Positions 5,076 through 30,001 of a DNA stretch of 32,000 nucleotides are shown in pieces. The first letter of the stretch is position 1, and every line of letters starts with the position of its first letter. Source of the DNA: Candidatus Poseidoniaceae archaeon (GTDB lineage: Archaea; Thermoplasmatota; Poseidoniia; Poseidoniales; Poseidoniaceae); assembly GCA_943789275.1 (NCBI GenBank), contig CALSTM010000002.1, positions 746,493 through 778,492 of the forward strand. Reading direction: 5' to 3'. The notes under the pieces were generated by a model. It was not told the DNA's origin. It was given only the letters and a program-made list of their open reading frames with translations, and searched no databases. The position numbers and the translations under genes were made by a program.

Positions 5076-8042
5076 TCAGTCAACTCGGGTTCGACCTACA
5101 AATGCCGATGCAGAGAGTATGCCCAACATGGTAAGAGCGACACTAAGGCTCGGGAGAGAATCCGCATCGGGTTCAATGGGTTCAGGTTCCACGACGAGGT
5201 TTTCCTCGCATGGAATCCAGTGACCGTCAATTCCTGGCTCTCCAGCTCCGGTAATTCCACCGGCTTCAGAGATGTAAAGCAATCCAGAATTTGCTGGCCA
5301 TTCGACGACATAGTTGCCAGAATAGAAGGAGATCGTATCATCCCATACGGGCTGTCCATTTGCCACCCATGTGGTCTTACAAGGGCAAGCATATGGCGTC
5401 CAAAATTCGTAGGCTTGGTCTTCGCCAGGTGCAGTTGAGACCATACCATTTGGATCAACTTGAGTCACCTGATAATACATGCCTGAGTTGGCTGGATATT
5501 GGTAAATATCACCAACAGAAACCATAGTTGTACTGTTCCAAACACCTGAGGTAGTAATTCCTTCACAAGGCCCTGGACTTGGACCGGTTCCATCACAGAG
5601 AACCCAGTGTGTATCAACACCTGGTTCTCCTGCGCCAATGCTCACACCTAATGATTCCAAAGGTATGTACAAATTACCAGAACCTGCAGGATGTTCGACA
5701 ACATAGTTTCCTGCATAAGCAGTATTGGCAACCCATGCAGGTTGTCCGTTTGCTACCCAAGTTTCCTTACATGGACAGTCAATTGGTGACCAAACATCCA
5801 TATCGATATCTGGGGCACTTACATTCCAGAATGGACTCCCAGCATTGACTTGGTAATAGATTCCCGAATCGACAGGGTATTCGTAAATTTCACCGGAAGT
5901 GACGTTCATAGAAGAATCCCAAACGCCTACAACATTGAGACCGGCACACGGATTTCCTGAAGGTTCTTGGCCATCACAGAGAACCCAGTGTGTATCAACA
6001 CCTGGTTCTCCTGCGCCAATGCTCACACCTAATGATTCCAAAGGCATGTACAAATTACCAGAACCTGCAGGATGTTCGACAACATAGTTTCCTGGGTAAG
6101 CAGTATTCGCCATCCATGCAGGTTGTCCGTTTGCTACCCAAGTTTCTTTGCATGGGCAGTCAATTGGTGACCAGACATCCATATCGATATCTGGGGCACT
6201 TACATTCCAGAAAGGACTTCCGGCATTGACTTGGTAATAGGTTCCCGAATTAACAGGGTATTCGTAAATTTCACCGGATGTAACGTTCATTGAAGAATCC
6301 CAAACGCCAACTATGGTGAGACCGGCACACGGAGTTCCATTTGCCGGTTCATCTGACTCGCTGCAGAGAATCCAATGGATATCAATTCCCGGTTCGCCGC
6401 CATTAGCGGAGATTCCTGTTGCGTCTGTTGTGACATAAAGATGCCCGGAGCCTGCAGGCCATTCAACCACGTCGCTTCCTAAGTAGGATGTATTTGCTGT
6501 CCATACCGGCTCTCCGTTGTCCATCCATGTTTCTTCACATGGGCAATCAACTGGAGCCCAAACATCCAAATCGATGAGAGGAGAAGAAACGTCTTGGTCT
6601 ACATATCCCTGGATTACAACTTCGTAATAATTCTGTGAACCTGCTGGATACTCGTATACTTCACCGGTTGAAACTCTACTTATATCGTCCCATACGCCTG
6701 CTGAGGTTGTGCCACCACAAGGGCCGCCTGTGGGTTGTTCTCCACCACAAACCTCCCATTGATTGCCGTCAGCAAACGCTTGGTCTGGAGTCACACCTGT
6801 GGTGGTTTGGCTAACAATCGCCATCCAAATATCGCCTGTTCCTGCTGGATACTCGACAAGAGCACCAACAGTGTAAACTGTGTTCGAATCCCATACTGGA
6901 TTCAAGGCTGCTTCCCAAATGTCTTTACAACTGCAACTATCTTTCGACCATGATTGGAAATCAGAACCTGGTGCTCCGACTGTTTGGTTGGAAAATCCAG
7001 GGGCTACTGCATGGAAGACTCCGGAACCTGCTGGGAATTCGTAAATCTCCCCTGTTGTAACAAGGGTAGAGTTCATCCAAGGCATACCTCCGTAGCCATT
7101 CAAATCTTCACAGAGATTACCGCTTGGCTGTAGTCCATCACAACTTCTCCATAGATAGTCATCAGAGCCACCTGGTTCAACTCCGGCACCATGATCGTAT
7201 GAGATGTAGAGGTTATTGGATCCTGCAGGCCATTCGACGACTGCCTGTTGAAGATAATTCATTGTCGAATCCCACACAGGTTGTCCGCTGTCATGCCAGA
7301 TGTCTTTACAATCACAATAGTCTTCTTCCCATGCATCTAAATCGACACCCGGTTCTCCTACTGTTTGATTATTGACAGTGGAGGAAGATACCATATAGAA
7401 ATTACCTGAATTTGCTGGGAATTCATAGATGTCTCCTGACGACACTAATGTTGTATTCCCCCATACACTCGGAGCCATTCCAATCAATTCATCACATGAT
7501 GAAGAATCTTCATGAGTGCACTGAACCCAAAGGTCATTGCCTACAAATGGTTCTGCTTGTGGTTCACCTGCAACGGTTCCGGCATCCTGTGCAATCCAAA
7601 CACTACCGTTGTGTTCAACGATTTGCCATGCACTGTAAGAGAAATTATAATTCCATTGTATCCCGCTTTCTTCAGCAATTTCTAAACATGAGCAAGGTCC
7701 TCTCCATTTGCTATTTGGAGTTGGTTCTCCTGTTATGCTGCTGGTGGTGCTTTGCCAAAATTGGCCTGAGTTTGCTGGCCATTCGACAATGTCATCGGCC
7801 GCATAGGTACTCGCGTTGTCCCATAAAGGACCGCCCATCCCGTCGCTGATACCTATGAAATTACAATTTGACACAGTGGAATTATTTCCATTCATTCCAT
7901 TGCTTTGCCGTCCTGCAAAGTTTACATTTTCATCGGTATTTTCTTCAAAACCGTTGTTCTTATCTTCAAATATATCAATTCCTGAAAGAGAGACTTGTAA
8001 AGTAAGTAAAGCCACAACCATCAAACATATCGCATTCCGCAT
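5076..8042 (-). CDS. Large exported modular repeat protein (putative adhesin) with CxC plus aromatic CBM5/12-like repeats and a C-terminal TM anchor
   Basis: 988 aa. N-terminal signal/anchor MRNAICLMVVALLTLQVSLSG. It has seven to eight modules of about 127 aa. Each contains GEIYE(F/Y)PAGSG.(F/Y)Y and C-x-C-K-(D/E)-(I/T)-W-x4-G-x-P-(V/A)-W-x3-T-x-Y-x4-VVE(W/H)PAGSG.LY. The W...Y..G..V.(Y/W)P...(Y/W) spacing resembles carbohydrate-binding module 5/12. The C-terminus is EPEPIEPDADSLPSLSVALTMLGILSASAFVGRTRVD (TM plus basic tail). Confidence 0.85.
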   Translation of the reverse strand: MRNAICLMVVALLTLQVSLSGIDIFEDKNNGFEENTDENVNFAGRQSNGMNGNNSTVSNCNFIGISDGMGGPLWDNASTYAADDIVEWPANSGQFWQSTTSSITGEPTPNSKWRGPCSCLEIAEESGIQWNYNFSYSAWQIVEHNGSVWIAQDAGTVAGEPQAEPFVGNDLWVQCTHEDSSSCDELIGMAPSVWGNTTLVSSGDIYEFPANSGNFYMVSSSTVNNQTVGEPGVDLDAWEEDYCDCKDIWHDSGQPVWDSTMNYLQQAVVEWPAGSNNLYISYDHGAGVEPGGSDDYLWRSCDGLQPSGNLCEDLNGYGGMPWMNSTLVTTGEIYEFPAGSGVFHAVAPGFSNQTVGAPGSDFQSWSKDSCSCKDIWEAALNPVWDSNTVYTVGALVEYPAGTGDIWMAIVSQTTTGVTPDQAFADGNQWEVCGGEQPTGGPCGGTTSAGVWDDISRVSTGEVYEYPAGSQNYYEVVIQGYVDQDVSSPLIDLDVWAPVDCPCEETWMDNGEPVWTANTSYLGSDVVEWPAGSGHLYVTTDATGISANGGEPGIDIHWILCSESDEPANGTPCAGLTIVGVWDSSMNVTSGEIYEYPVNSGTYYQVNAGSPFWNVSAPDIDMDVWSPIDCPCKETWVANGQPAWMANTAYPGNYVVEHPAGSGNLYMPLESLGVSIGAGEPGVDTHWVLCDGQEPSGNPCAGLNVVGVWDSSMNVTSGEIYEYPVDSGIYYQVNAGSPFWNVSAPDIDMDVWSPIDCPCKETWVANGQPAWVANTAYAGNYVVEHPAGSGNLYIPLESLGVSIGAGEPGVDTHWVLCDGTGPSPGPCEGITTSGVWNSTTMVSVGDIYQYPANSGMYYQVTQVDPNGMVSTAPGEDQAYEFWTPYACPCKTTWVANGQPVWDDTISFYSGNYVVEWPANSGLLYISEAGGITGAGEPGIDGHWIPCEENLVVEPEPIEPDADSLPSLSVALTMLGILSASAFVGRTRVD
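5568..6329. repeat. Near-identical tandem duplication, 2 x 381 bp (127 codons), inside the adhesin gene
   Basis: Protein residues 572-698 and 699-825 align without gaps at 116/127 identical by my hand alignment (CAGLTIVGVWDSSMNVTSGEIYEYPVNSG... versus CAGLNVVGVWDSSMNVTSGEIYEYPVDSG...). The antisense ORFs 5579-5848 and 5990-6229 show the same near-identity, so it holds at the DNA level. Copy boundaries are 5568-5948 and 5949-6329. Confidence 0.9.
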
Positions 8043-12750: not shown

Positions 12751-14805
12751 TCACTCGGTTGATTCTTCAGCGTCTGCCGCTGGTTCATCAGCCGATTCTT
12801 CTTGAGGAGGAGCAGCCTCGAATGCCTTTTCTGCATCTTCTTCACCCATCATCTTGACACCGAGGCCAAGACAGGCGATTGCACCAATCAAGAGAAGTGG
12901 CGCAAGGAAGTCAGTAGGGACGTCGAAGTTTGTCCAGTAGGTCAGTGCCTTCTGGTTCGTAGTGACGCTTGATGCAAGGTCCTCAGCATCTGCATCCCCA
13001 ATCTCTGAACTGGATGTAATCATGAACACAGCTTGCAAGTGACTTGCGTTAGGAGCGGTGTGTTGGTCGGTGATTGGGCGCATGTCCAACCAGAAAGTCG
13101 ATTCCGAAGAACCGGCGATGATGGCTCCACTCAGTTGCTCTGCTTGGAGAGAAACTTCGCTACCGAAGTAGACCGGTAGAGCACCTGGCAATGCATCAAG
13201 CAAGGTATCTGTATCGAGGAGCTTGGCTTGAATTGGGCGTTCCAATGGGTCAAGTGATGCTGAACAATCATCGACAGCGATGTCTTTCAAAGTCGAAGTG
13301 CCATCGCAAGTAATGGCTGCTGTTGCGTATCCTGAAAGGTCGACCATGTCACCAGAGCCCGTCAAGAATCCGCCGGTTGTTCCTGTTCGGGATTCTGCGG
13401 TAATGAGGCCGAGGGTGTTCACCGTCTTTGCAGGGTCTTTCCATGCGAAGTAGGAGCTGCCGTCAACGGCCATCATTTCGCCCTTATCACAGGTCGAGAC
13501 TTCACCGGTACAGATCATGTAATCTGTTCCAGTGTCACTGACAATTCCGCCAGAGCCGTAGAACGTTGCGTTGGATTCAAGGCTGGTCCATCCAACGGTC
13601 ATGTCCATTGGATTTCCACTTGCAAGGAAAGCAGATACTGGATCGTGCCATCCGAGCAACCAATTGTTGAACTCTTGAGTCAGGTATGGAGTGGTTCCAA
13701 AAGAACTCATCAAGAAGCCTGGTACGAAATCGGCAAAGATTGGTGAAGAAACAAAGAGACTCATTGCTTCAGCGGTGTTTTCGTCAACACCATACAAGAG
13801 GCCAATCGTGCTTGCATTCCACGTCATTGGAGCAGCAGGCTCCATGGTCATCAAGTTCACAGGCGGGGTCATACCGCTTAGTTCACCGTACAAGAACAAG
13901 GTTGCTCCAGTCGAAGTTGTCAATCCGAGTGGGCCATAGAGCATGTTTCCGGCTTGTGCCTGGGTGATGGAAACTGGAGTTGCATCAGCGTGTCCTGGAA
14001 TCATTCCAGCACCCCATGCGCCACCCATGTTGAGGGAGTTGGTGAGGTAAGGGTCGCCAACAGGACTCATGCCACCAAAGGTTTGGTTGACAAATTGCTC
14101 AGCGTTCATTGTGCCTACGCCACCAAGAAGACCCAGTTGAACCGAAGTGGCTGAGGTTGCCCATCCGCCGGCCCAAGTAGCCACTGCGGTGTATTGCTCA
14201 ACGGTGAGGTTGAAGGCAGCCATAGCGTCAGGGACTTCCATGGTAAGGAAAGCAGCAAGGCCGAATCCTGTTCCGTCAGCGTTGGTTGCAATCAATCCAG
14301 TAGGTGTATCGGTGAGGTGTCCGGCAACCATGAGGGAAATGCCGTTTGCACCAGTAAAGTCGGCACCGAGAAGGTTGTGAAGTCGGCTGGTGATGTCGTC
14401 GTTGTTTGTAGCGTTGAAGTCTGCACCGCCGCCGTAGCCGGCGAAACTTGTTCCAACTGCTGCATACATGGTCCAGTCTCGAACGAATGTTTCGTAAGGG
14501 TCTGCGGTTGCGTATCGATACAATCCTGCTCGTTGCATGACCGTTGAGTTCGCTGGATCTGCTAACACATCAGCCAGCATTACTTCAGGTTCTCCCATTC
14601 CCATGAATGCCACAACACCTATTGGATCCATGAGAGACATGTTGAATTCCGAGTCAGCAGGCGAGGAAGTGTTTTCCATTGCGTTGTCCAAATCTCCGGA
14701 TGACCAGTTTCCATTTGTGTTCGATAAATTGTGACCTGCTTGTTGCATTCGCAGCCATAATGCCCATTCCGGTTTCAGAGGCTTTCCATTCGCTTTCAGC
14801 GCCAT
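12751..14805 (-). CDS. CD36/LIMP-2/SR-B family-like surface protein, C-terminal fragment (ectodomain, C-terminal TM and acidic tail); appears to be one gene with 14654-15535
   Basis: 684-aa ORF with no signal peptide of its own. The reading frame stays open upstream to 14841. It contains LTQEFNNWLLGWHDPVSAFL and LPVYFGSEV...STFWLDMRPITDQH...LQAVF, which line up with CD36-family blocks. It ends in the TM segment FLAPLLLIGAIACLGLGV and the tail EEDAEKAFEAAPPQEESADEPAADAEESTE. Confidence 0.8.
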   Translation of the reverse strand: MALKANGKPLKPEWALWLRMQQAGHNLSNTNGNWSSGDLDNAMENTSSPADSEFNMSLMDPIGVVAFMGMGEPEVMLADVLADPANSTVMQRAGLYRYATADPYETFVRDWTMYAAVGTSFAGYGGGADFNATNNDDITSRLHNLLGADFTGANGISLMVAGHLTDTPTGLIATNADGTGFGLAAFLTMEVPDAMAAFNLTVEQYTAVATWAGGWATSATSVQLGLLGGVGTMNAEQFVNQTFGGMSPVGDPYLTNSLNMGGAWGAGMIPGHADATPVSITQAQAGNMLYGPLGLTTSTGATLFLYGELSGMTPPVNLMTMEPAAPMTWNASTIGLLYGVDENTAEAMSLFVSSPIFADFVPGFLMSSFGTTPYLTQEFNNWLLGWHDPVSAFLASGNPMDMTVGWTSLESNATFYGSGGIVSDTGTDYMICTGEVSTCDKGEMMAVDGSSYFAWKDPAKTVNTLGLITAESRTGTTGGFLTGSGDMVDLSGYATAAITCDGTSTLKDIAVDDCSASLDPLERPIQAKLLDTDTLLDALPGALPVYFGSEVSLQAEQLSGAIIAGSSESTFWLDMRPITDQHTAPNASHLQAVFMITSSSEIGDADAEDLASSVTTNQKALTYWTNFDVPTDFLAPLLLIGAIACLGLGVKMMGEEDAEKAFEAAPPQEESADEPAADAEESTE

Positions 14806-15460
14806 TGGCCCAAAGGTGGCAAGGTATTCCTTGTTGCATAGTTACGTTTAAGACTTCGACTTCCATTGTGCAGAGGTCACCAGTTGTGGCAGTTCCTGCT
14901 TGTGTGGTGTTCATGTCTTGGTTGATCATTTGTGCAGCGAATCCAACCTTAGTGAGGTCCATGATTCCGTTGATGGCCATTCCGGTTGCACCGATGACTT
15001 GCGGGGTGAAACCGATGTTCAATTGCGTGATTTCAACATCACAAGGAACGACGGTGTCCACAGAACAGGCATAGGATGTGTTCTCGTGGTAGGTGATGGT
15101 ACCTGCAGTTGAATCACGAGAAACAAATGTTCGGTCTGAGGTGATGGTGTAGGTTACAGGTCCAATCTTTTCGTGGGTTGGGGCTGTTCCATTGGCCATG
15201 ACGTCGTCAAGATTCGTTACGGTCCAGCCGTAAAAATCTCGGTCGGCGGTTGAAGTTACCCAATCGGATTCAAGTTCAGTACAGTCGTCATTGGCACAAA
15301 TATTGTCCAAAGGCGTGGTCTTTGTTGCTTCCAGTACAGCGTCTTCAACACCACCGGTAGAGAGCACGGAAAGGCCTCCACTCAGCAGTATGAACACAAG
15401 TCCTGCAGCTAGCATCGTTTTGTCTGTCATCATCGACATAAAGAGCGAACGCAAATCCAT
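14654..15460 (-). CDS. CD36/LIMP-2/SR-B family-like surface protein, N-terminal fragment (N-terminal TM plus first ectodomain blocks)
   Basis: TM segment MLAAGLVFILLSGGLSVL, then ESDWVTSTADRDFYGWTVTNLDDVMANGTAPTHEKIGPVTYT. The last 60 or so codons (GIPCHLWANG...RRFGQRNGKHFLAC) look like out-of-frame read-through. The ORF track starts at TTG 15535. ATGs lie at 15502, 15460 and 15439, and a TATA-like GAATATAC at about 15490-15497 favours 15460. Confidence 0.7.
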   Translation of the reverse strand: MDLRSLFMSMMTDKTMLAAGLVFILLSGGLSVLSTGGVEDAVLEATKTTPLDNICANDDCTELESDWVTSTADRDFYGWTVTNLDDVMANGTAPTHEKIGPVTYTITSDRTFVSRDSTAGTITYHENTSYACSVDTVVPCDVEITQLNIGFTPQVIGATGMAINGIMDLTKVGFAAQMINQDMNTTQAGTATTGDLCTMEVEVLNVTMQQGIPCHLWANGAESEWKASETGMGIMAANATSRSQFIEHKWKLVIRRFGQRNGKHFLAC

Positions 15461-15572
15461 AGCACATAAGTGTTGGCGAGAACACCTAGTATATTCGGCC
15501 ATATCCCTTTGATTCACCAAGAGCCAAGCATCCAATCGGTGCGGTCATCAAGTTGAAGCCGTACCGAGCATC

Positions 15573-17745: not shown

Positions 17746-20700
17746 TTATTCTTCCCAAACCGCCCAGTCTTCCCAGCCTTCTTCGCGGTACCACCAAACG
17801 CCTTCTTCGTCTTCCCACCACTCAGTGCCGTTCTCATCGACTGAGATGTCGGCATCTTCGGTAGCTTCCTCGGTATTGTCTTCTGATTCAAACGCTTCTT
17901 CGTGGACATATTCTTCGGTAGCTCCACGGCCATCAACTTCGTCAAACAACGTGCGACGGCGTTCTTCGGGTGGATCTCCGGCAGTGAATTCATCACCTGA
18001 ACTCCGAATCTCATCAAGGCTGCGACTTGAACGAGGAGCTGGAGTCGGTGCTGAATCTTCGGTTTCGTCGAGTTCGTCAAATGCTTCGAACCAATCATCG
18101 TCCTCTTCAGTTCGAGAGCGAAGGAGTACCAAAGCAATACCGACGCCAGCTAAAACGAGAATGGCTATGATTCCGCCAACAAGAGCGCCTGAGCCACCCT
18201 CCGTACTGTCTTTGGTCGTATCTCCGTTGCCCGAATCAGGGATAACGATTGGTTCGCTCAATGTCCACTGGAGTTCACCCACGGTTGTGGCAGAAGGCGT
18301 AGTCATCTCAGTGCAGCGGCCTGTACCGTCATCCAAACACGTTAAGATCAATTGATAGCCAACGCCTTGTAATCCAGGGAACAATCCATCGGATGGACCG
18401 TTTCGTATTGGGGTAAACGTGACTTCAACGGTTTCATTGGCGTTTAATGTAAGGGGTGGCCCCGAACTGGGCAGAGAGTCGGTCTCAAAAGAGAGCGGGC
18501 CGGGTGTGGCCGAGTTTTCGGTCCATGCAAAGTCGACTTGTACTTCAAATGGATTTGGGTTGCTCACTGTACAAGTAATCGATGAATCCGTCGAGTTCTC
18601 TTCCCAAGCATAGGTTGCTGCTTCGCAAGAAAATGTGCCTGCGAGGGTAACATCAGGGAAAACAGGATTTTCGGTCTGATTATCGGTTTGATTCGTCGTT
18701 TGATTTTCGGTATTGTTCACTGTTTGATTCACCGCATGACCGGCAAACGAAAACGAGTAGGTTTCCGGGGTTACTGAAAACCAGCCTTGCCCTTGGGATG
18801 GAGTGAAACTGAGCGTACCATGGGCGTCGGAAATCCCTGTAAGCGAAACTTTCCCACCTTTGACTTCTACAGTTCCGTTTTCAATGATATTGCCCGTCTC
18901 ATTGCTAAGGTGCCAATCGTATCCCACGTTTGCTAATACTGAAGATTGTGAAGGCAGTTCAGGTGTAATCGATGCCTCGACTGAATAGTGGCCTGTCTCG
19001 TTCAACTGTACTGGTTCGGAAGAGTGTGAGACTGTAGCCCTAAGCACACCCATTCCCGAGAAGGTAACGGATGATACGTCAGCCGGCTGAATCGTTGCTG
19101 AACCTGCTGTTCCCGCGTATTCTACAGAGATGGTTGCCTGACCAAGGAACTCTGAAAACGATGCCGAGAGTTCTGTTAAATCGTCGACAGATACAGCGTG
19201 CCATACGCCGTTTTCGTCGGTTGTGCCCTGCATTGAATAAACGAAATCTCCGGCTTCAAACATCATCGACAGGTCCTGGGATTCAAGACCTGCTCCTTCA
19301 CTGGTGAGTGCCGCTGTGACATTCAATGAATCAAGAGCGCTCATCTCGAAGAACGTTGCGTTGTACGTGCCTGAAGATGAAAGACTGAGGGTTAATTGCG
19401 ATTGCCGGAGCGAATTGTTCAATGTATGAACTGGACCAACCGATGAAAACTGTTCCGAAGTATTACCGTATTCGTCATAAGCCACGACAGCGATCCAATA
19501 GTCCGTACGATCGACCAGCGGAGTACCGTCGCCGGTGGTTGTAATGTTCATGGAAAAGGAGCCAGGCGTTGAAGATGAATTCGTGATTGCGAACTCAGTG
19601 AGGTTATCCAAAGTTAGAATTTCAAACGCTTCGACAAAGACCCTGTATTCGGAAGGTGCATCGAAAGACGCATTCCAACCCAAATCAAACGAGCTTCCGT
19701 TATCGTCTGGGGTATCGACGACTGACAGGCCTTGTACCGCAGAAGGTGGAGCTGGGTAAGGAATTGTAACGGAAAGGCGAGCTGAGAGATTGCTGGTCAC
19801 TCCGTAGAGGTGCAACGAGCGAACAACATAATCATAAGAGTCGCCGGGGGCAAAATTTGGGTCTATGGTCGAGTTTATCTCGGTGGTGAAAGTCGGGTTG
19901 TTGAGGTCCAAAACGCCCCCAGAAACGACTCTAAACACTTCAAATTCTATGAAACCATCACCAAATTCAATCTCGTCTTGCCATGAGAAGGACACCATTT
20001 CATGCGTCAGGATTTCCAGTTGCAAAACAGGTGCAGGCGGTAAAGCGAGATTTGGTGCACCGGGGATGTAATCGGCACTGAGGTCTGAAGCATACAAACT
20101 GCCGTTCTTGGTAGAGGTGAACGGTAAATCAATGACAATTGTGCCGCTGCCGGCTGTTTGAAGTTGATTGATGATGTTGGTGAGGTTCCCTTGTGCTGCA
20201 GGATTGTTCTCAACGATGAAGTCGATATCGTAGCCAATGTCCAACGAACTCATGTTGAAAGTGCCATGGCCCGTACTGGTGAAATCAAGCAGGAGAGATG
20301 CCATTTCAATGTCGTAATCCATCAATTGTGACGATTGTGCAGTGAGTTGGAGCACCAGTAAATTTTTCAAAAGGCCGAGGTCGTCGATAATCGAAAGTGG
20401 ACTTGTACCCAATACGTTATCGCCAGCATAACCTTCAGCAGTCAAGTCGTTCTGCCCGTCAAGGTCAATGTCAACGCCAATCGATTCCCATGAACCGATG
20501 AACAAACCAAACACCGTATCTTCGCCTGCTGAAACAACATGCTCCATCTGTCCGTCACCGTTCAAATCTATGAACAAGGAATCAGTGGGACAGGTCCACG
20601 GCTCAAGTGCGTCCATGGTGGCGTTAATTGAAGACAATGTGATGTTGTACATGGTTAGGTTCCCATCTAAGGTTTGAGCGTTGCCGTCCGGTGAATCAAA

Positions 20701-22017
20701 TTGTGGGACAAAGAGCGACATAGCCCCGTTGTTATCGTGGTCAGCCAACGTGGTGTTTTCGAAATTCAAATTGGAGACAACTGATGTTGTTGACCAACCT
20801 GAAGCGGTATTCTCCGCAAGAGTATAGCCTTGGAGGGTCGGGGAGAAAATATCGATGTCGCCATCAAAATCAATGTCACCAAGAACAAGGTCATCGCTCA
20901 GACCATCCATCGTATCGCCTGTTGGCGAAAGGGCTCCGCTGTTCCATGTGATCTGGCTTGAGTGGCCTAGGGAATCAACGACAATGACTGTAAAAGCACC
21001 TTGGCTTCCTTCGAAATAGTCGCCTGTCAGGCCAACAAGTTGAGCAGCAGTTGCAGTGCCGTTTACGTCAATGGTAACCGTAGAGTTATCGGAAAAGGTA
21101 TTTCGTTTCGTATCGTATTCACGAAGCGATACAATTCCGTTCTGATGTACAGAGACAATGTCTGCTCCACCGTCTCCGACAATGTCCCCTGCAAGTGCTG
21201 AGATGAGTCCAGAACTTAGGGCGATTGGGGTCGCATTACCCAGAGTTCCGTTGGCAGCATCGTAAAGATGGACGCATGCAAGATTCATAGAAGGAGCGAC
21301 TGAAAGAACATCTGAATAATTGTCATCGTTGATATCTGCGACTGAAAGAGCGTTGCTTGAGCCACATGTAGGCATCCATGAAGTGGAAGTAACGCCCGAT
21401 GTAGCGTCCCAGTCAAGGATTGAAATCGCCGCTTGGGAATTCGTTACGGATTGGACTGTTGACAATACCACAATCTCATCGCGACTGTCGTTATCGAAAT
21501 CTCCGTACTCATAGGTTGTGAGTTGGCCGGTTTGTTGCAGCCCCGCTGATACTTCAGAGGTGAAGCTCATCGATGCAACTGCCGTCTCAATCGTGGATGT
21601 TTTGGGTACGTAAAACGGCATAGAGGAAGCGCCGCCGTTCGAGTAGACATCTTCGGCAGTATAGCCGTTAAAGAAGGTGTTTTGATGGCCTATGTCGCCA
21701 AAACCAACGCCTTCAAACGCCCATTCCTTAATCCCATCTTCGTTGACGTCCAGTGCCACTTGACCGGGAGATACGTCGTTATGGTCGACATTGATGTAAA
21801 ATTGGGCGGATTCAAAGGTTACATTTCTCGGGACTTCGAATGAAAAATTCGTGTCCGTTTGGTTCGCAACCAGAGGGACGGTAATTAACGCCGAACCGTT
21901 CGAAAAAAGATACACTGAGCCAGCTTGACCGTTTGCGCTCGCAGACAATAATGCCCCTGATTGGGAAAAAACAAGCAAAAAGAAAACAAAGAAAGTTGTG
22001 AATCGTTTCAATTCCAT
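17746..22017 (-). CDS. Giant surface protein: signal peptide, FG-GAP/integrin-alpha-like Ca-binding repeats, FN3/Ig-like domains, N-glycosylation stalk, single TM, 124-aa acidic Trp-rich cytoplasmic tail
   Basis: 1423 aa. Signal peptide MELKRFTTFFVFFLLVFSQSGALLSASA. Repeated D-x-D/N-x-D-G loops are present (DFDNDSRDEIV, DINDDNYSDVL, DIVGDGGADIV, DIDFDGDIDIF, DHDNNGAMSLF, DLNGDGQMEHV, DIDLDGQNDL). FN3-like segments include PAPVLQLEILTHEMVSFSWQ and PSAVQGLSVVDTPDDNGSSFDLGWNAS. TM segment GALVGGIIAILVLAGVGIALVLL. The tail ends WWEDEEGVWWYREEGWEDWAVWEE. An SD-like GTGAGG lies upstream of the ATG. Confidence 0.9.
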   Translation of the reverse strand: MELKRFTTFFVFFLLVFSQSGALLSASANGQAGSVYLFSNGSALITVPLVANQTDTNFSFEVPRNVTFESAQFYINVDHNDVSPGQVALDVNEDGIKEWAFEGVGFGDIGHQNTFFNGYTAEDVYSNGGASSMPFYVPKTSTIETAVASMSFTSEVSAGLQQTGQLTTYEYGDFDNDSRDEIVVLSTVQSVTNSQAAISILDWDATSGVTSTSWMPTCGSSNALSVADINDDNYSDVLSVAPSMNLACVHLYDAANGTLGNATPIALSSGLISALAGDIVGDGGADIVSVHQNGIVSLREYDTKRNTFSDNSTVTIDVNGTATAAQLVGLTGDYFEGSQGAFTVIVVDSLGHSSQITWNSGALSPTGDTMDGLSDDLVLGDIDFDGDIDIFSPTLQGYTLAENTASGWSTTSVVSNLNFENTTLADHDNNGAMSLFVPQFDSPDGNAQTLDGNLTMYNITLSSINATMDALEPWTCPTDSLFIDLNGDGQMEHVVSAGEDTVFGLFIGSWESIGVDIDLDGQNDLTAEGYAGDNVLGTSPLSIIDDLGLLKNLLVLQLTAQSSQLMDYDIEMASLLLDFTSTGHGTFNMSSLDIGYDIDFIVENNPAAQGNLTNIINQLQTAGSGTIVIDLPFTSTKNGSLYASDLSADYIPGAPNLALPPAPVLQLEILTHEMVSFSWQDEIEFGDGFIEFEVFRVVSGGVLDLNNPTFTTEINSTIDPNFAPGDSYDYVVRSLHLYGVTSNLSARLSVTIPYPAPPSAVQGLSVVDTPDDNGSSFDLGWNASFDAPSEYRVFVEAFEILTLDNLTEFAITNSSSTPGSFSMNITTTGDGTPLVDRTDYWIAVVAYDEYGNTSEQFSSVGPVHTLNNSLRQSQLTLSLSSSGTYNATFFEMSALDSLNVTAALTSEGAGLESQDLSMMFEAGDFVYSMQGTTDENGVWHAVSVDDLTELSASFSEFLGQATISVEYAGTAGSATIQPADVSSVTFSGMGVLRATVSHSSEPVQLNETGHYSVEASITPELPSQSSVLANVGYDWHLSNETGNIIENGTVEVKGGKVSLTGISDAHGTLSFTPSQGQGWFSVTPETYSFSFAGHAVNQTVNNTENQTTNQTDNQTENPVFPDVTLAGTFSCEAATYAWEENSTDSSITCTVSNPNPFEVQVDFAWTENSATPGPLSFETDSLPSSGPPLTLNANETVEVTFTPIRNGPSDGLFPGLQGVGYQLILTCLDDGTGRCTEMTTPSATTVGELQWTLSEPIVIPDSGNGDTTKDSTEGGSGALVGGIIAILVLAGVGIALVLLRSRTEEDDDWFEAFDELDETEDSAPTPAPRSSRSLDEIRSSGDEFTAGDPPEERRRTLFDEVDGRGATEEYVHEEAFESEDNTEEATEDADISVDENGTEWWEDEEGVWWYREEGWEDWAVWEE

Positions 22018-25939: not shown

Positions 25940-27124
25940 TTACTCATAAGCAATTTCAGTAAGTTTTGGAACAAGAACGGTGATGGTGACGGTGAGCGTC
26001 CAATCGTTCCCGGGGTCTGGGTCGGGGGCCCCCTCAAACAACGGGTCTGGATCTGCTTGTTGAGCGGTAACCGACCAAACCCATGTCCCCTGCCCTTTAC
26101 GTGTGCCCGAGGCCATCAGTAATTGTTCGAGAAGGAGTTCTGCTGAATCCGAATCATAGATTCCGTCTTCTCCTGAAGGGTTCATGTTGTTGGCGGACAA
26201 TGCAGCAGAAGAGGATTCGTTCGCAGTTAAATTTCCTCCATCGGTCTGAGCGTTCTTTTCGTAGTTATCGTTGACAATCAAAACGCTAAGGGTAAAGTTG
26301 TCTTGTGGAGCGAGGAGGTCTTGTTGGAGCTCAAGAAGGCCGTTGAAACTGATGACTCTTCCCTCGGCACCAGGAGTGATGTTGCCTTGCCACTCTTGGC
26401 CTTGGTCGAGGTATTCATCCCATGTGAACTCCACTTCTTTCGACTCCCAAGACACCTCGTACTTGCGAGACTTAATCTCGAGTGAAAATAATTCCTTGAC
26501 AAAGGCGTCAGCTGAATCTGTTACGGTTAGACTGCATTGAACAGTGCCCGAGCGGTTGGTAGGCAACAGTACAGTTTCTGTTGAAGCATCGATATCGTTT
26601 CGCATATCGCCATCACCATCGCTGTCTTCTGCCCAATTCAAATCCCAAGCATAGCGGAGAAGGTCGCCCTCGGGGTCCAAACTTCTGCTCGCATCAAGCA
26701 TGACTGAATCGCCGGAGCGAATGGATTCGGGATACGTAAGATTGAGAACCGGGGCCCCGTTGACATTGATGGTGGAAGTTGCTGAATCTTCACCCCCTTG
26801 GTTATTGACCACGGTCAATTTAACCGTGAAAATACCGAACGTTGAATACCGGTGTGAAGTAAAACCTGTTGCCGTCTCACTGGTCTGCCCGTCACCAAAA
26901 TCCCACAAAAATTCGGTGATGATGCCTTCAATGGGTTCTGACGACCGTGCATCGAAAGTGACCGTTTCGCCCTCCTGGATTTGAAGAGGGTATGCGGTGA
27001 GATTTGCACGGGGGTCGACGGTCGAGCTCAGCCCACCGGTGCAGCCAGCAACAAGACTGGAGCAGACAAGTAAAGCGACCATGGCGAGAGAACGGAGCAT
27101 ACGCCCGGAATTTCCTTGCCACAT
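25940..27124 (-). CDS. Secreted lipoprotein with two PKD domains and an unrecognised C-terminal domain
   Basis: 394 aa. The signal peptide has a lipobox (MLRSLAMVALLVCSSLVAGC). PKD 1 is VTFDARSSEPIEGIITEFLWDFGDGQT...HRYSTFGIFTVKLTVVNNQGG. PKD 2 is SVMLDASRSLDPEGDLLRYAWDLNW.... Confidence 0.8.
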   Translation of the reverse strand: MWQGNSGRMLRSLAMVALLVCSSLVAGCTGGLSSTVDPRANLTAYPLQIQEGETVTFDARSSEPIEGIITEFLWDFGDGQTSETATGFTSHRYSTFGIFTVKLTVVNNQGGEDSATSTINVNGAPVLNLTYPESIRSGDSVMLDASRSLDPEGDLLRYAWDLNWAEDSDGDGDMRNDIDASTETVLLPTNRSGTVQCSLTVTDSADAFVKELFSLEIKSRKYEVSWESKEVEFTWDEYLDQGQEWQGNITPGAEGRVISFNGLLELQQDLLAPQDNFTLSVLIVNDNYEKNAQTDGGNLTANESSSAALSANNMNPSGEDGIYDSDSAELLLEQLLMASGTRKGQGTWVWSVTAQQADPDPLFEGAPDPDPGNDWTLTVTITVLVPKLTEIAYE

Positions 27125-28624: not shown

Positions 28625-29037
28625 CGTGATAAATGTTCATCGAGGTCTATTAGAGTGATTTTGTTCATGTTTTGTAATTTGAAATAATGATGCCCTTTTC
28701 CATTACTAATTTTTGAATCAATGATAGGCAGGTCTGAGATGTCCAACTCAGAACGAATTAATGCTTCCGTGAGGCATCTTAAATCGAAAAATTTGGTTTG
28801 ATTGAATGCACCGAAATTCATCCCATGGGCATGTTCATTCAATGCTGCGACCAATACTACACGGTTCATTTCTGAATAAGCGGAAACTCGGCATTCAAAA
28901 TCTTCATCGCCAATATCTAGTTCGTGCATAAGAATTCTAAAACGCCCAAGTTGAAGATGTTTATGTGAAATGTAAGCAATAATCAGTTTGTTAGACAATC
29001 CACGTGGTTTTTCACTTAACCGATTGTAGACAAGCAA
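28594..29037 (-). CDS. Hypothetical protein (ORFan, AT-rich island)
   Basis: 147-aa ORF starting at TTG; the first ATG would give 111 aa (MHELDIGDEDFECRV...). No recognisable family. Coding status rests on ORF length within about 30% G+C DNA, where long ORFs are unlikely by chance. Confidence 0.5.
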   Translation of the reverse strand: MLVYNRLSEKPRGLSNKLIIAYISHKHLQLGRFRILMHELDIGDEDFECRVSAYSEMNRVVLVAALNEHAHGMNFGAFNQTKFFDLRCLTEALIRSELDISDLPIIDSKISNGKGHHYFKLQNMNKITLIDLDEHLSRYIVNSTEEE

Positions 29038-29107
29038 TATTGTTCACAAAGATTTGAGCATAGGCCTTTGAATGAATTTTAAATGATTAAATCGACTAAA
29101 GATTGAA

Positions 29108-29743
29108 TTAATCGAACATTTCATGTATTTCGTCAAGAGAATGTCCTTTAATTCTCATATCGAACGTGAATTTAGGTTGATGTAATCTTCTGGTATATCT
29201 TCCCTCTCTTGTCAATGCAAGTTCATGGTACCTATGGAACAGTTCTTTTTCAGTTTCGAGATTGCAGTATAGTGACGCATAATTAAGTGCTGCTAATATT
29301 ATATTATTATTGATGAAATTAGATAGACCATGATTCTGATTCATAATAAAAGAAGGCCAAGTTAATTCACCATTCAACACCGAATCAAGCCAAGTCCATG
29401 GATTCATCTTCAATTTGGGGTGCTTTTTATGTCTAGAAACGGCGACATTCATGGCTTGACTAATCATATGTTCACAGAGTTCTAATATGGGTTGTTCGTT
29501 ACTTCCAGCACTTTGAAGAATTTGATTTATTTTCTCTAAATCTAGTATTTCATTCAATAAAGGAATATATTTTGAAAATTCCTCGCCTTCAAACCTAATT
29601 ATTCTTTGTAGAACCACAAACCCCGGAGTTCTAGATTTCAGCGGTATTTTAACCATTTCGTTAAGATAGGATTCTACGTGATGTAATGAACCTGAAAATA
29701 GTTTAAGATAGAATTCAATGGGTTGTTCATTTCCATCCTCCAT
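29108..29743 (-). CDS. Hypothetical, probably all-alpha protein (ORFan, AT-rich island)
   Basis: 211 aa from the first ATG (MEDGNEQPIEFYLKLF...). The track start at 29758 is GTG. A TATA-like CTATAATTAAA (29768-29778) lies about 30 nt upstream of the ATG. No recognisable family. Confidence 0.55.
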   Translation of the reverse strand: MEDGNEQPIEFYLKLFSGSLHHVESYLNEMVKIPLKSRTPGFVVLQRIIRFEGEEFSKYIPLLNEILDLEKINQILQSAGSNEQPILELCEHMISQAMNVAVSRHKKHPKLKMNPWTWLDSVLNGELTWPSFIMNQNHGLSNFINNNIILAALNYASLYCNLETEKELFHRYHELALTREGRYTRRLHQPKFTFDMRIKGHSLDEIHEMFD

Positions 29744-30001
29744 GAAATAATTTAACACCCTCTCCGCTTTAATTATAGTGGTAAATTAGATTAATCGGAA
29801 TGCTTTAATCGAGTGTGTCATAATGGTTGTTTGTGGGAGAAATTTTAGATACTGAAATTCAAGAATGGACCGTTTCCCAATGTGATGTAGGCAAATCTAT
29901 GGGAACGGACGGAATTATATTCACAAAAGTGAGTCGAAACCCATGTCGTCTAGAAGAGAGGGGTATTGAATCTTTAATGCAAGCGCAGTCAAGCATTCCT
30001 A

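Follow-up and report, generated by a model that had tools for sequence, protein, structure and literature searches.

A member of the CD36/scavenger receptor class B family with a predicted apex expansion in marine Poseidoniales archaea

Introduction

In animals, receptors of the CD36 family, also called scavenger receptor class B (SR-B), have key parts in the uptake of lipids, in innate immunity and in the entry of pathogens. Here we describe a gene that encodes an archaeal member of this family, located on the minus strand of a 32,000 nt stretch of DNA from a Candidatus Poseidoniaceae archaeon (assembly GCA_943789275.1, contig CALSTM010000002.1, positions 746,493 to 778,492), which we refer to in full as the window. 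The Poseidoniales are the most abundant planktonic archaea of the ocean. Described CD36-family proteins have a cavity or tunnel inside the ectodomain, which is thought to serve as the route of hydrophobic ligands from the apex down to the membrane (PMC6684646, PMC4912623, PMC5052687, PMC10715195), and tunnel-mediated lipid transfer has been reported for LIMP-2 (PMC6684646), SNMP1 (PMC4912623) and CD36, the last with a bound fatty acid (PMC5052687). The apex region is regarded as ligand-sensing and has been expanded independently in several eukaryotic lineages (PMC10715195).

The latest family-wide survey, from 2023, traced the CD36 family to the last eukaryotic common ancestor and mentioned no prokaryotic members (PMC10715195). 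An initial annotation of the window, made from its letters alone, had described the family as generally regarded as eukaryotic; this stands in so far as the survey covers eukaryotes only, and it fails at the level of structure, where a relative is known from actinobacteria (PMC8972800). That relative is the envelope protein LmcA, or PgfA (MSMEG_0317, Rv0227c; DUF3068/PorA family; PDB 7N3V and 7SHW), of about 350 aa, for which a lipid-binding or trafficking role has been proposed (PMC8972800, PMC9678360). Since LmcA has been published as a prokaryotic structural relative, the fold is not strictly eukaryotic. In a literature search for CD36 or scavenger receptors together with archaea, Marine Group II (MGII) or prokaryotes, only the LmcA papers proved relevant, and none was found that treats a CD36 homologue of archaea or MGII. 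Public databases already attach the Pfam CD36 family (PF01130) automatically to nearly all relatives of the protein described here, one of which is named "CD36 family protein" by NCBI.

Results and Discussion

Sequence-level membership of the CD36 family

The gene is represented in the window by two overlapping minus-strand open reading frames (ORFs), 14654..15535 (293 aa) and 12751..14805 (684 aa), offset by one reading frame; its full extent and features are given in Table 1. The repaired protein matches PF01130 with 46.4 bits (E 2.7e-12), well over the curated cut-off of 26.5, and the N-terminal ORF alone reaches 36.7 bits. From 1.84 billion representative proteins that were searched, ten divergent full-length relatives were taken, and these reach 29.3 to 68.1 bits against the same profile. 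Pfam scans at E<=10 returned no family besides PF01130 (LmcA/DUF3068 (PorA) gave no match), and an NCBIfam scan returned nothing meaningful. When a profile of the archaeal family was compared with 177,635 PDB sequences, the only proteins retrieved were LIMP-2 (E 1.4e-6) and CD36 (E 3.5e-3), with HMMER adding a second aligned stretch at the WLLGWHDP / LLWGYKDE block.

Profile-profile alignment with hhalign was carried out against human LIMP-2 and CD36, whose sequences were checked to be identical to PDB chains 4q4f_A and 5lgd_A. The N-terminal block (aa 60-151) aligned with LIMP-2 46-140 at E 2e-8 and 95% probability, and the C-terminal part (aa 584-835) aligned with LIMP-2 160-432 as a single collinear alignment of 228 columns at E 8.6e-4, in which WLLGWHDP is paired with LLWGYKDE, LPVYFGSE with APIIMSFPHF, and FWLDMRPIT with TFVDINPLT. 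The N- and C-terminal strand motifs thus keep the order of the family (M1/M2 ... M17 of PMC10715195), the C-terminal side being weak when taken alone. The initial annotation had aligned several blocks with human CD36 strings, and these strings are correct according to chain 5lgd_A. The order of the blocks that it proposed held in the profile-profile alignment; its pairing of LQAVF with LQVNL did not, as hhalign sets LQAVFMITSSSEIGD against MVFPVMYLNESVHID.

The protein is in our assessment a genuine archaeal member of the CD36/SR-B family, and this membership is well supported because Pfam, the PDB profile search, hhalign and Foldseek, the last on two predicted models, all agree.

Table 1. Features of the CD36-like gene, in window coordinates; aa numbers refer to the protein.
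Feature	Position	Strand	Basis or remark
Whole CD36-like gene	12751..15460	-	Stop codon 12751-12753; one extra base interrupts
Predicted N-terminal hydrophobic helix TMLAAGLVFILLSGGLSVLSTGG	15350..15418	-	Hydropathy, AlphaFold2
CD36 domain, N-terminal part: long beta strands and an ascending long helix; Cys 55/60, 132/140	14885..15283	-	PF01130, aa 60-179 to profile 43-157
Insertion of ~390 aa, predicted mainly alpha-helical, at the presumed apex-helix position (LIMP-2 ~140-160)	13711..14884	-	AlphaFold2, alignments
Hypervariable cassette opening the insertion	14493..14884	-	DNA/protein allele comparison
Frameshift, one extra base	14745..14745	-	c on minus strand (G on + strand), within aatgCaacaagc; DNA alignment
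CD36 domain, C-terminal part (beta strands): WLLGWHDP, LPVYFGSE, FWLDMRPIT, EIGDADAE; Cys 650/657, 718/732	12955..13710	-	Alignments, AlphaFold2
Predicted C-terminal transmembrane helix DFLAPLLLIGAIACLGLGVKM	12850..12912	-	Hydropathy, AlphaFold2
Short acidic cytoplasmic tail, 32 aa	12754..12849	-	Sequence

Protein anatomy and predicted fold

The repaired protein is strongly acidic (110 D+E versus 24 K+R) and contains exactly two hydrophobic segments, aa 8-30 and 843-863 in the 895-aa numbering, both modelled by AlphaFold2 as long helices; lysines are found beside their cytoplasmic sides. This is in keeping with the CD36 hairpin topology that had been proposed at the outset. By analogy with CD36 the N-terminal helix would be a signal anchor, and a cleaved signal peptide is also possible; the PF01130 alignment begins at profile position 2 in the relatives P0124, P0128 and P0129. 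The four closely spaced cysteine pairs listed in Table 1 are near-invariant in the family, and each family member carries 9-19 N-x-S/T sequons.

AlphaFold2 was run on P0001, an intact 902-aa homologue that is 99% identical to the window protein, with a 34-sequence alignment (36-92% identity), and gave a model with a mean predicted local distance difference test score (pLDDT) of 77 and a predicted template-modelling score of 0.68. The order of elements in this model is a transmembrane helix, beta strands at aa 69-132, a 45-residue helix at 151-195, a mainly helical region to ~614, strands at 645-819 and a C-terminal transmembrane helix. The N- and C-terminal thirds of the ectodomain, which spans ~810 aa, are shown in the model to build jointly an asymmetric antiparallel beta-barrel of the CD36 type. 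A second model, of the 41% identical P0124, reached pLDDT 75.

Foldseek comparison of the P0001 model with the PDB placed LIMP-2/SCARB2/CD36 entries in all of the top 13 positions (E from 3e-6, TM-score normalised by target ~0.40), and the same was true of the top 13 for P0124; across both models these matches had E values of 1e-6 to 6e-3, a probability of 1.0 and ~300 aligned columns. The crystal structures of LIMP-2 and CD36, proposed beforehand as the reference for the fold, therefore rank ahead of all other PDB entries for two independent family members. The viral structure library BFVD, which serves as a negative control, yielded no fold match under E 0.48, and viral homologues were ruled out on this ground.

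Comparison with described systems

The eukaryotic comparison set comprised CD36, SCARB1, LIMP-2/SCARB2, insect SNMP and Croquemort, and Dictyostelium LmpA-C. In common with them, the archaeal protein exceeds the curated PF01130 threshold, bears a hydrophobic helix and a short tail at either end, and keeps the conserved blocks of its N- and C-terminal strands in collinear order. Its ectodomain is predicted as an asymmetric beta-barrel, for which the family is the best PDB fold match, and it has numerous N-glycosylation sequons and ectodomain cysteine pairs (compared by presence). As in some protist SR-B members, the apex is expanded (PMC10715195). Unlike the eukaryotic proteins, the one described here has an archaeal host, is twice as long (about 900 aa versus 450-520), has a predicted helical insertion of ~390 aa at the place of the three-helix apex bundle, and carries a ~130-aa cassette that is swapped between strains; sequence identity to the eukaryotic members is only about 13-25%.

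LmcA resembles the archaeal protein in being a prokaryotic envelope protein with an elongated CD36-like beta-barrel, an N-terminal signal or anchor, a C-terminal transmembrane helix and a small cytoplasmic tail, and it is the second-best fold match of the archaeal models (Foldseek E ~1e-2 versus 1e-6 for LIMP-2). No sequence relationship to it is detectable, PF01130 being the only match, and LmcA itself has no apex bundle at all. The mycobacterial lipid-carrier lipoproteins LprG and LppX, which consist of a beta-sheet with a hydrophobic cavity, appear low in the fold-search lists with non-significant matches (E 0.6-2, probability <0.35), and they differ from the archaeal protein in architecture and membrane anchoring.

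Gene structure and the frameshift at position 14745

Three-frame translation leads from ORF 14654..15535 into ORF 12751..14805 after a shift of one base, and the two are a single gene split by one extra base. The initial annotation had joined the two ORFs into a protein of about 900 aa, as is borne out by P0001, which is uninterrupted and reads GIMAANEQAGHNLS over the frameshift site. The lesion was located by alignment of the window DNA with three related contigs, L001, L002 and L003. L002 (ENA ERZ10646520), which provides the DNA of P0001, is intact and differs from the window by 3 substitutions and the lack of base 14745 (99.9% DNA identity). The extra base is also present in L001 (ERZ10646630), despite 25 substitutions relative to the window inside the gene, and in L003 a scaffold gap of Ns runs across window positions 14605-14704, with 14705-14791 absent too. 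Both the frameshift and the L003 gap lie within or across the hypervariable cassette described below. In L001 the purine-biosynthesis gene purM (5943-7054) is broken into calls of 49 aa and 321 aa, whereas purM in the window is intact (374 aa); as this second frameshift is missing from the window, indel errors do happen in these assemblies. The frameshift at 14745 reflects either an error in the assembly or a lesion at strain level, and is no trait of the family. Programmed frameshifting was ruled out, since no slippery site is present and the base is just missing from the intact allele.

The candidate start codons are ATG 15460 (902 aa when repaired, as called for P0001) and ATG 15439 (895 aa, beginning MSMMTDK as in most homologues); TTG 15535 is a mere ORF boundary and the real start is one of these two. 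An AATATA element at 15490-15495 on the minus strand, 30 nt ahead of ATG 15460, may be an archaeal TATA box, in which case the mRNA would be leaderless or have a short leader.

The apex insertion and its variable cassette

In the alignments the ~390 extra residues (aa ~193-583) fall between LIMP-2 positions ~140 and ~160, which we take to be the apex helix region. The alignments also confirm that a large insertion separates the first two blocks, as noted at the outset for a protein about twice the usual length. The insertion is bordered in the P0001 model by long helices at aa 151-195 and 560-587, and a predicted helical domain of ~390 aa fills the position of the bundle. It has no Pfam match, and no significant non-CD36 PDB or viral fold match could be traced to it.

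Column entropy is highest at aa 181-300, while the barrel and the remainder of the insertion are strongly conserved. Outside aa ~181-345 the homologues P0004 and P0007 match P0001 at 100% identity, and within that stretch at just 23-67%. In a further contig (L084), the DNA on either side of 14493-14884 matches the window at 98-99% identity, and this stretch itself is essentially unalignable. These comparisons show the first ~130 residues of the insertion as a cassette exchanged between otherwise identical alleles. At the locus with the conserved gene order PAC2-Trm1-gene-PurM-esterase-MCM, the gene is 82% (L005) or 48% (L029) identical to that of the window where PurM is 91% identical in either case, and this unevenness suggests that the entire allele was replaced or that it evolves very fast compared with the neighbouring genes. 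Overall, the pattern of variability indicates allele or cassette exchange by recombination at what would be the exposed tip. A diversity-generating retroelement was ruled out: the window has no template-like repeat, no reverse transcriptase is encoded nearby and the variation includes indels.

A further locus, L027, belongs with L005 and L029 in the comparison of gene and PurM identity. Over 10 kb, L001 and the window differ by 27 substitutions, 25 of which fall in the CD36-like gene. Most of these form three tight clusters with 3-nt spacing (14951-15022, 13786-13807 and 13339-13360), and those in the second ORF are silent. The clusters have the look of short tracts acquired by recombination from a diverged allele.

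Distribution and genomic context

The family forms at least 412 clusters at 90% identity and 192 at 50% identity, the latter including ~15 divergent full-length members. A search for archaeal orthologs, suggested by the initial annotation, found 225 loci in GTDB species-representative genomes. Nearly all named records are metagenome-assembled genomes (MAGs) assigned to Poseidoniales, Poseidoniaceae or "Euryarchaeota", together with the closed MG-II genome CM001443.1. The gene is near-universal in the clade, and a second search seeded with divergent members returned mostly the same clade again.

The window is part of an archaeal chromosome, as had been presumed: it encodes MCM, GatE, Trm1, PAC2 and PurM, and its closest MAGs are Poseidoniaceae. 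The gene is monocistronic, lying between convergent purM and divergent trm1, and the syntenic order given above is kept in about 30 MAGs. Apparent bacterial members were ruled out. Two contigs from "Rhodobiaceae" and "Yoonia" MAGs (L076 and L081) have flanking genes 90-100% identical to Poseidoniaceae/Poseidoniales/Thermoplasmatota loci, and the NCBI record "CD36 family protein [bacterium]" (L084) has the synteny of the window at 98-99% DNA identity; judging by these flanks, all three are Poseidoniales DNA that has been mis-binned or mislabelled.

Several MAGs carry a second, non-syntenic paralogue (L032+L047, L048+L055, L053+L083 and L052+L070), and the neighbours of the paralogue loci are housekeeping genes (pyruvate kinase, PheRS, MscS, an SPFH protein and a phosphatase). 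At 14 loci the gene that comes after the paralogue on the same strand encodes a conserved ~280-aa protein with a transmembrane helix at each end and a Cys-rich ectodomain, which could be a partner.

Proposed function and alternative explanations

We favour, with some confidence, a role as a CD36-type surface receptor that would catch hydrophobic substrates and hand them to the membrane. By analogy with the animal proteins, it would sit as a hairpin in the cytoplasmic membrane with both ends intracellular, and its ectodomain, probably glycosylated and disulfide-bonded, would reach through the cell envelope. The enlarged apex might then catch a hydrophobic ligand, for example fatty acids or lipids of particles or algal debris, which would move down the barrel to the membrane, as is thought for CD36, SR-B1, LIMP-2 and SNMP1, and feed a fatty-acid degradation pathway. 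All MGII genera encode fatty-acid degradation, and lipid degradation and particle association have been predicted for them (PMC6461757). It is from this analogy that we infer a role as a lipid or fatty-acid conduit. Several points weigh against it. The gene copy in the window carries a frameshift; neither the window locus nor the paralogue loci have lipid-metabolism neighbours, and the neighbourhoods give no functional clue; the C-terminal hhalign alignment is weak by itself, with a probability of 23% from a two-sequence template; and hypervariability of the apex would be no less fitting in a contact surface for other proteins or viruses than in a site that binds lipids.

The last of these points leads to an explanation that we think unlikely, in which a protein of the same fold and family would act mainly as a surface adhesin or recognition receptor for particles, algal or other cells, and also be a target of archaeal viruses, with the barrel as scaffold and the variable apex as the working part, diversified by an arms race. 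Such a role would fit the cassette exchanged between otherwise 100% identical alleles, a syntenic gene that is 48% or 82% identical where PurM is equally 91%, and the breaking of assemblies in the cassette region. In animals, the apex of CD36/LIMP-2 is bound by enterovirus 71. PfEMP1 binds this apex too (PMC5052687). For MGIIa, attachment to particles is inferred, and they have further adhesion genes (PMC6461757). However, the strong conservation of the barrel and of the remaining insertion suggests a function beyond display, no binding partner could be identified, and recognition is compatible with lipid transfer rather than exclusive of it. We give still less weight to a role in lipid trafficking or envelope biogenesis, in which the protein would carry lipids of the cell itself, or glycans linked to lipids, outward from the membrane towards the surface layer. 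A role of this kind has been proposed for LmcA/PgfA and LprG/LppX. M. smegmatis LmcA does provide the next Foldseek matches after LIMP-2/CD36 (E 0.008-0.02, probability ~1.0), followed by LppX and LprG at non-significant E; it has a CD36-like barrel with cavities, a C-terminal transmembrane helix and an N-terminal signal (PMC8972800), and acts in lipid trafficking (PMC9678360), and a gene that is near-universal in the clade and set amid housekeeping genes would be in keeping with such a task. Against this, the sequence is far nearer to eukaryotic CD36 than to DUF3068, and strain-level hypervariability of the apex would be unexpected in a housekeeping exporter.

Two further explanations concern the gene rather than its role. 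If the frameshift were genuine, the receptor would have been lost in this particular strain and the window copy would be a pseudogene, as the identical extra base in L001, 25 in-gene substitutions away, might suggest. We nevertheless regard this as doubtful, although it has a real chance of being correct: both halves of the gene are still fully open, the protein of the second ORF is 100% identical to another homologue (P0043), the intact allele is only 3 substitutions away, the purM frameshift in L001 attests to indel errors, and the site lies where assemblers do badly, as the N gap in L003 illustrates. A chance or convergent resemblance to CD36, or eukaryotic contamination as the source of the contig, might be argued from the structural alignments, which show just 12-14% identity to LIMP-2 and CD36. 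This we hold to be barely credible and effectively refuted already, given the concurrence of four independent methods and the archaeal synteny conserved in about 30 MAGs, among which is the closed MG-II genome.

A protein with thrombospondin type-3-like repeats flanks one paralogue locus (L041), and CD36 is a thrombospondin receptor in animals. Thrombospondin-repeat proteins are reported to be widespread in MGII genomes (PMC6461757). This co-occurrence may be a coincidence.

Origin of the family

What is new here is a clade of the CD36 family in archaea, recognisable at the level of sequence, whose size is doubled by an apex domain with a strain-variable cassette. The clade reopens the question of the origin of the family, with either a prokaryotic ancestry or an ancient inter-domain transfer into archaea to be considered. 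A far-reaching possibility, which we put forward as speculation with the odds against it, is that CD36/SR-B was not a eukaryotic invention, and that a vertically kept Poseidoniales lineage links LmcA-type lipid barrels to eukaryotic scavenger receptors, its members being lipid-capturing surface receptors in which pressure from viruses or ligands diversifies the apex through the exchange of cassettes. Otherwise, the gene would have passed from a eukaryote to an archaeon long ago and been remodelled since, which would be unusual too and less far-reaching. The family also offers a concrete candidate for fatty-acid and lipid acquisition by uncultured heterotrophs that genomic reconstructions say consume these compounds, and a natural experiment in apex remodelling, in which the region that is ligand-sensing in animals is eight-fold larger and swapped between strains. 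Two things limit its importance: these proteins already receive their database labels automatically, and the function proposed comes by analogy only.

Other features of the window

Three other large proteins, probably located at the cell surface, are encoded nearby on the minus strand, at 17746-22017 (1423 aa, with FG-GAP repeats), 5076-8042 (988 aa, no Pfam match) and 25940-27124 (394 aa, with a PKD domain). The guanine-plus-cytosine content of window positions 29001-30000 is 0.35, compared with about 0.50 elsewhere in the window.

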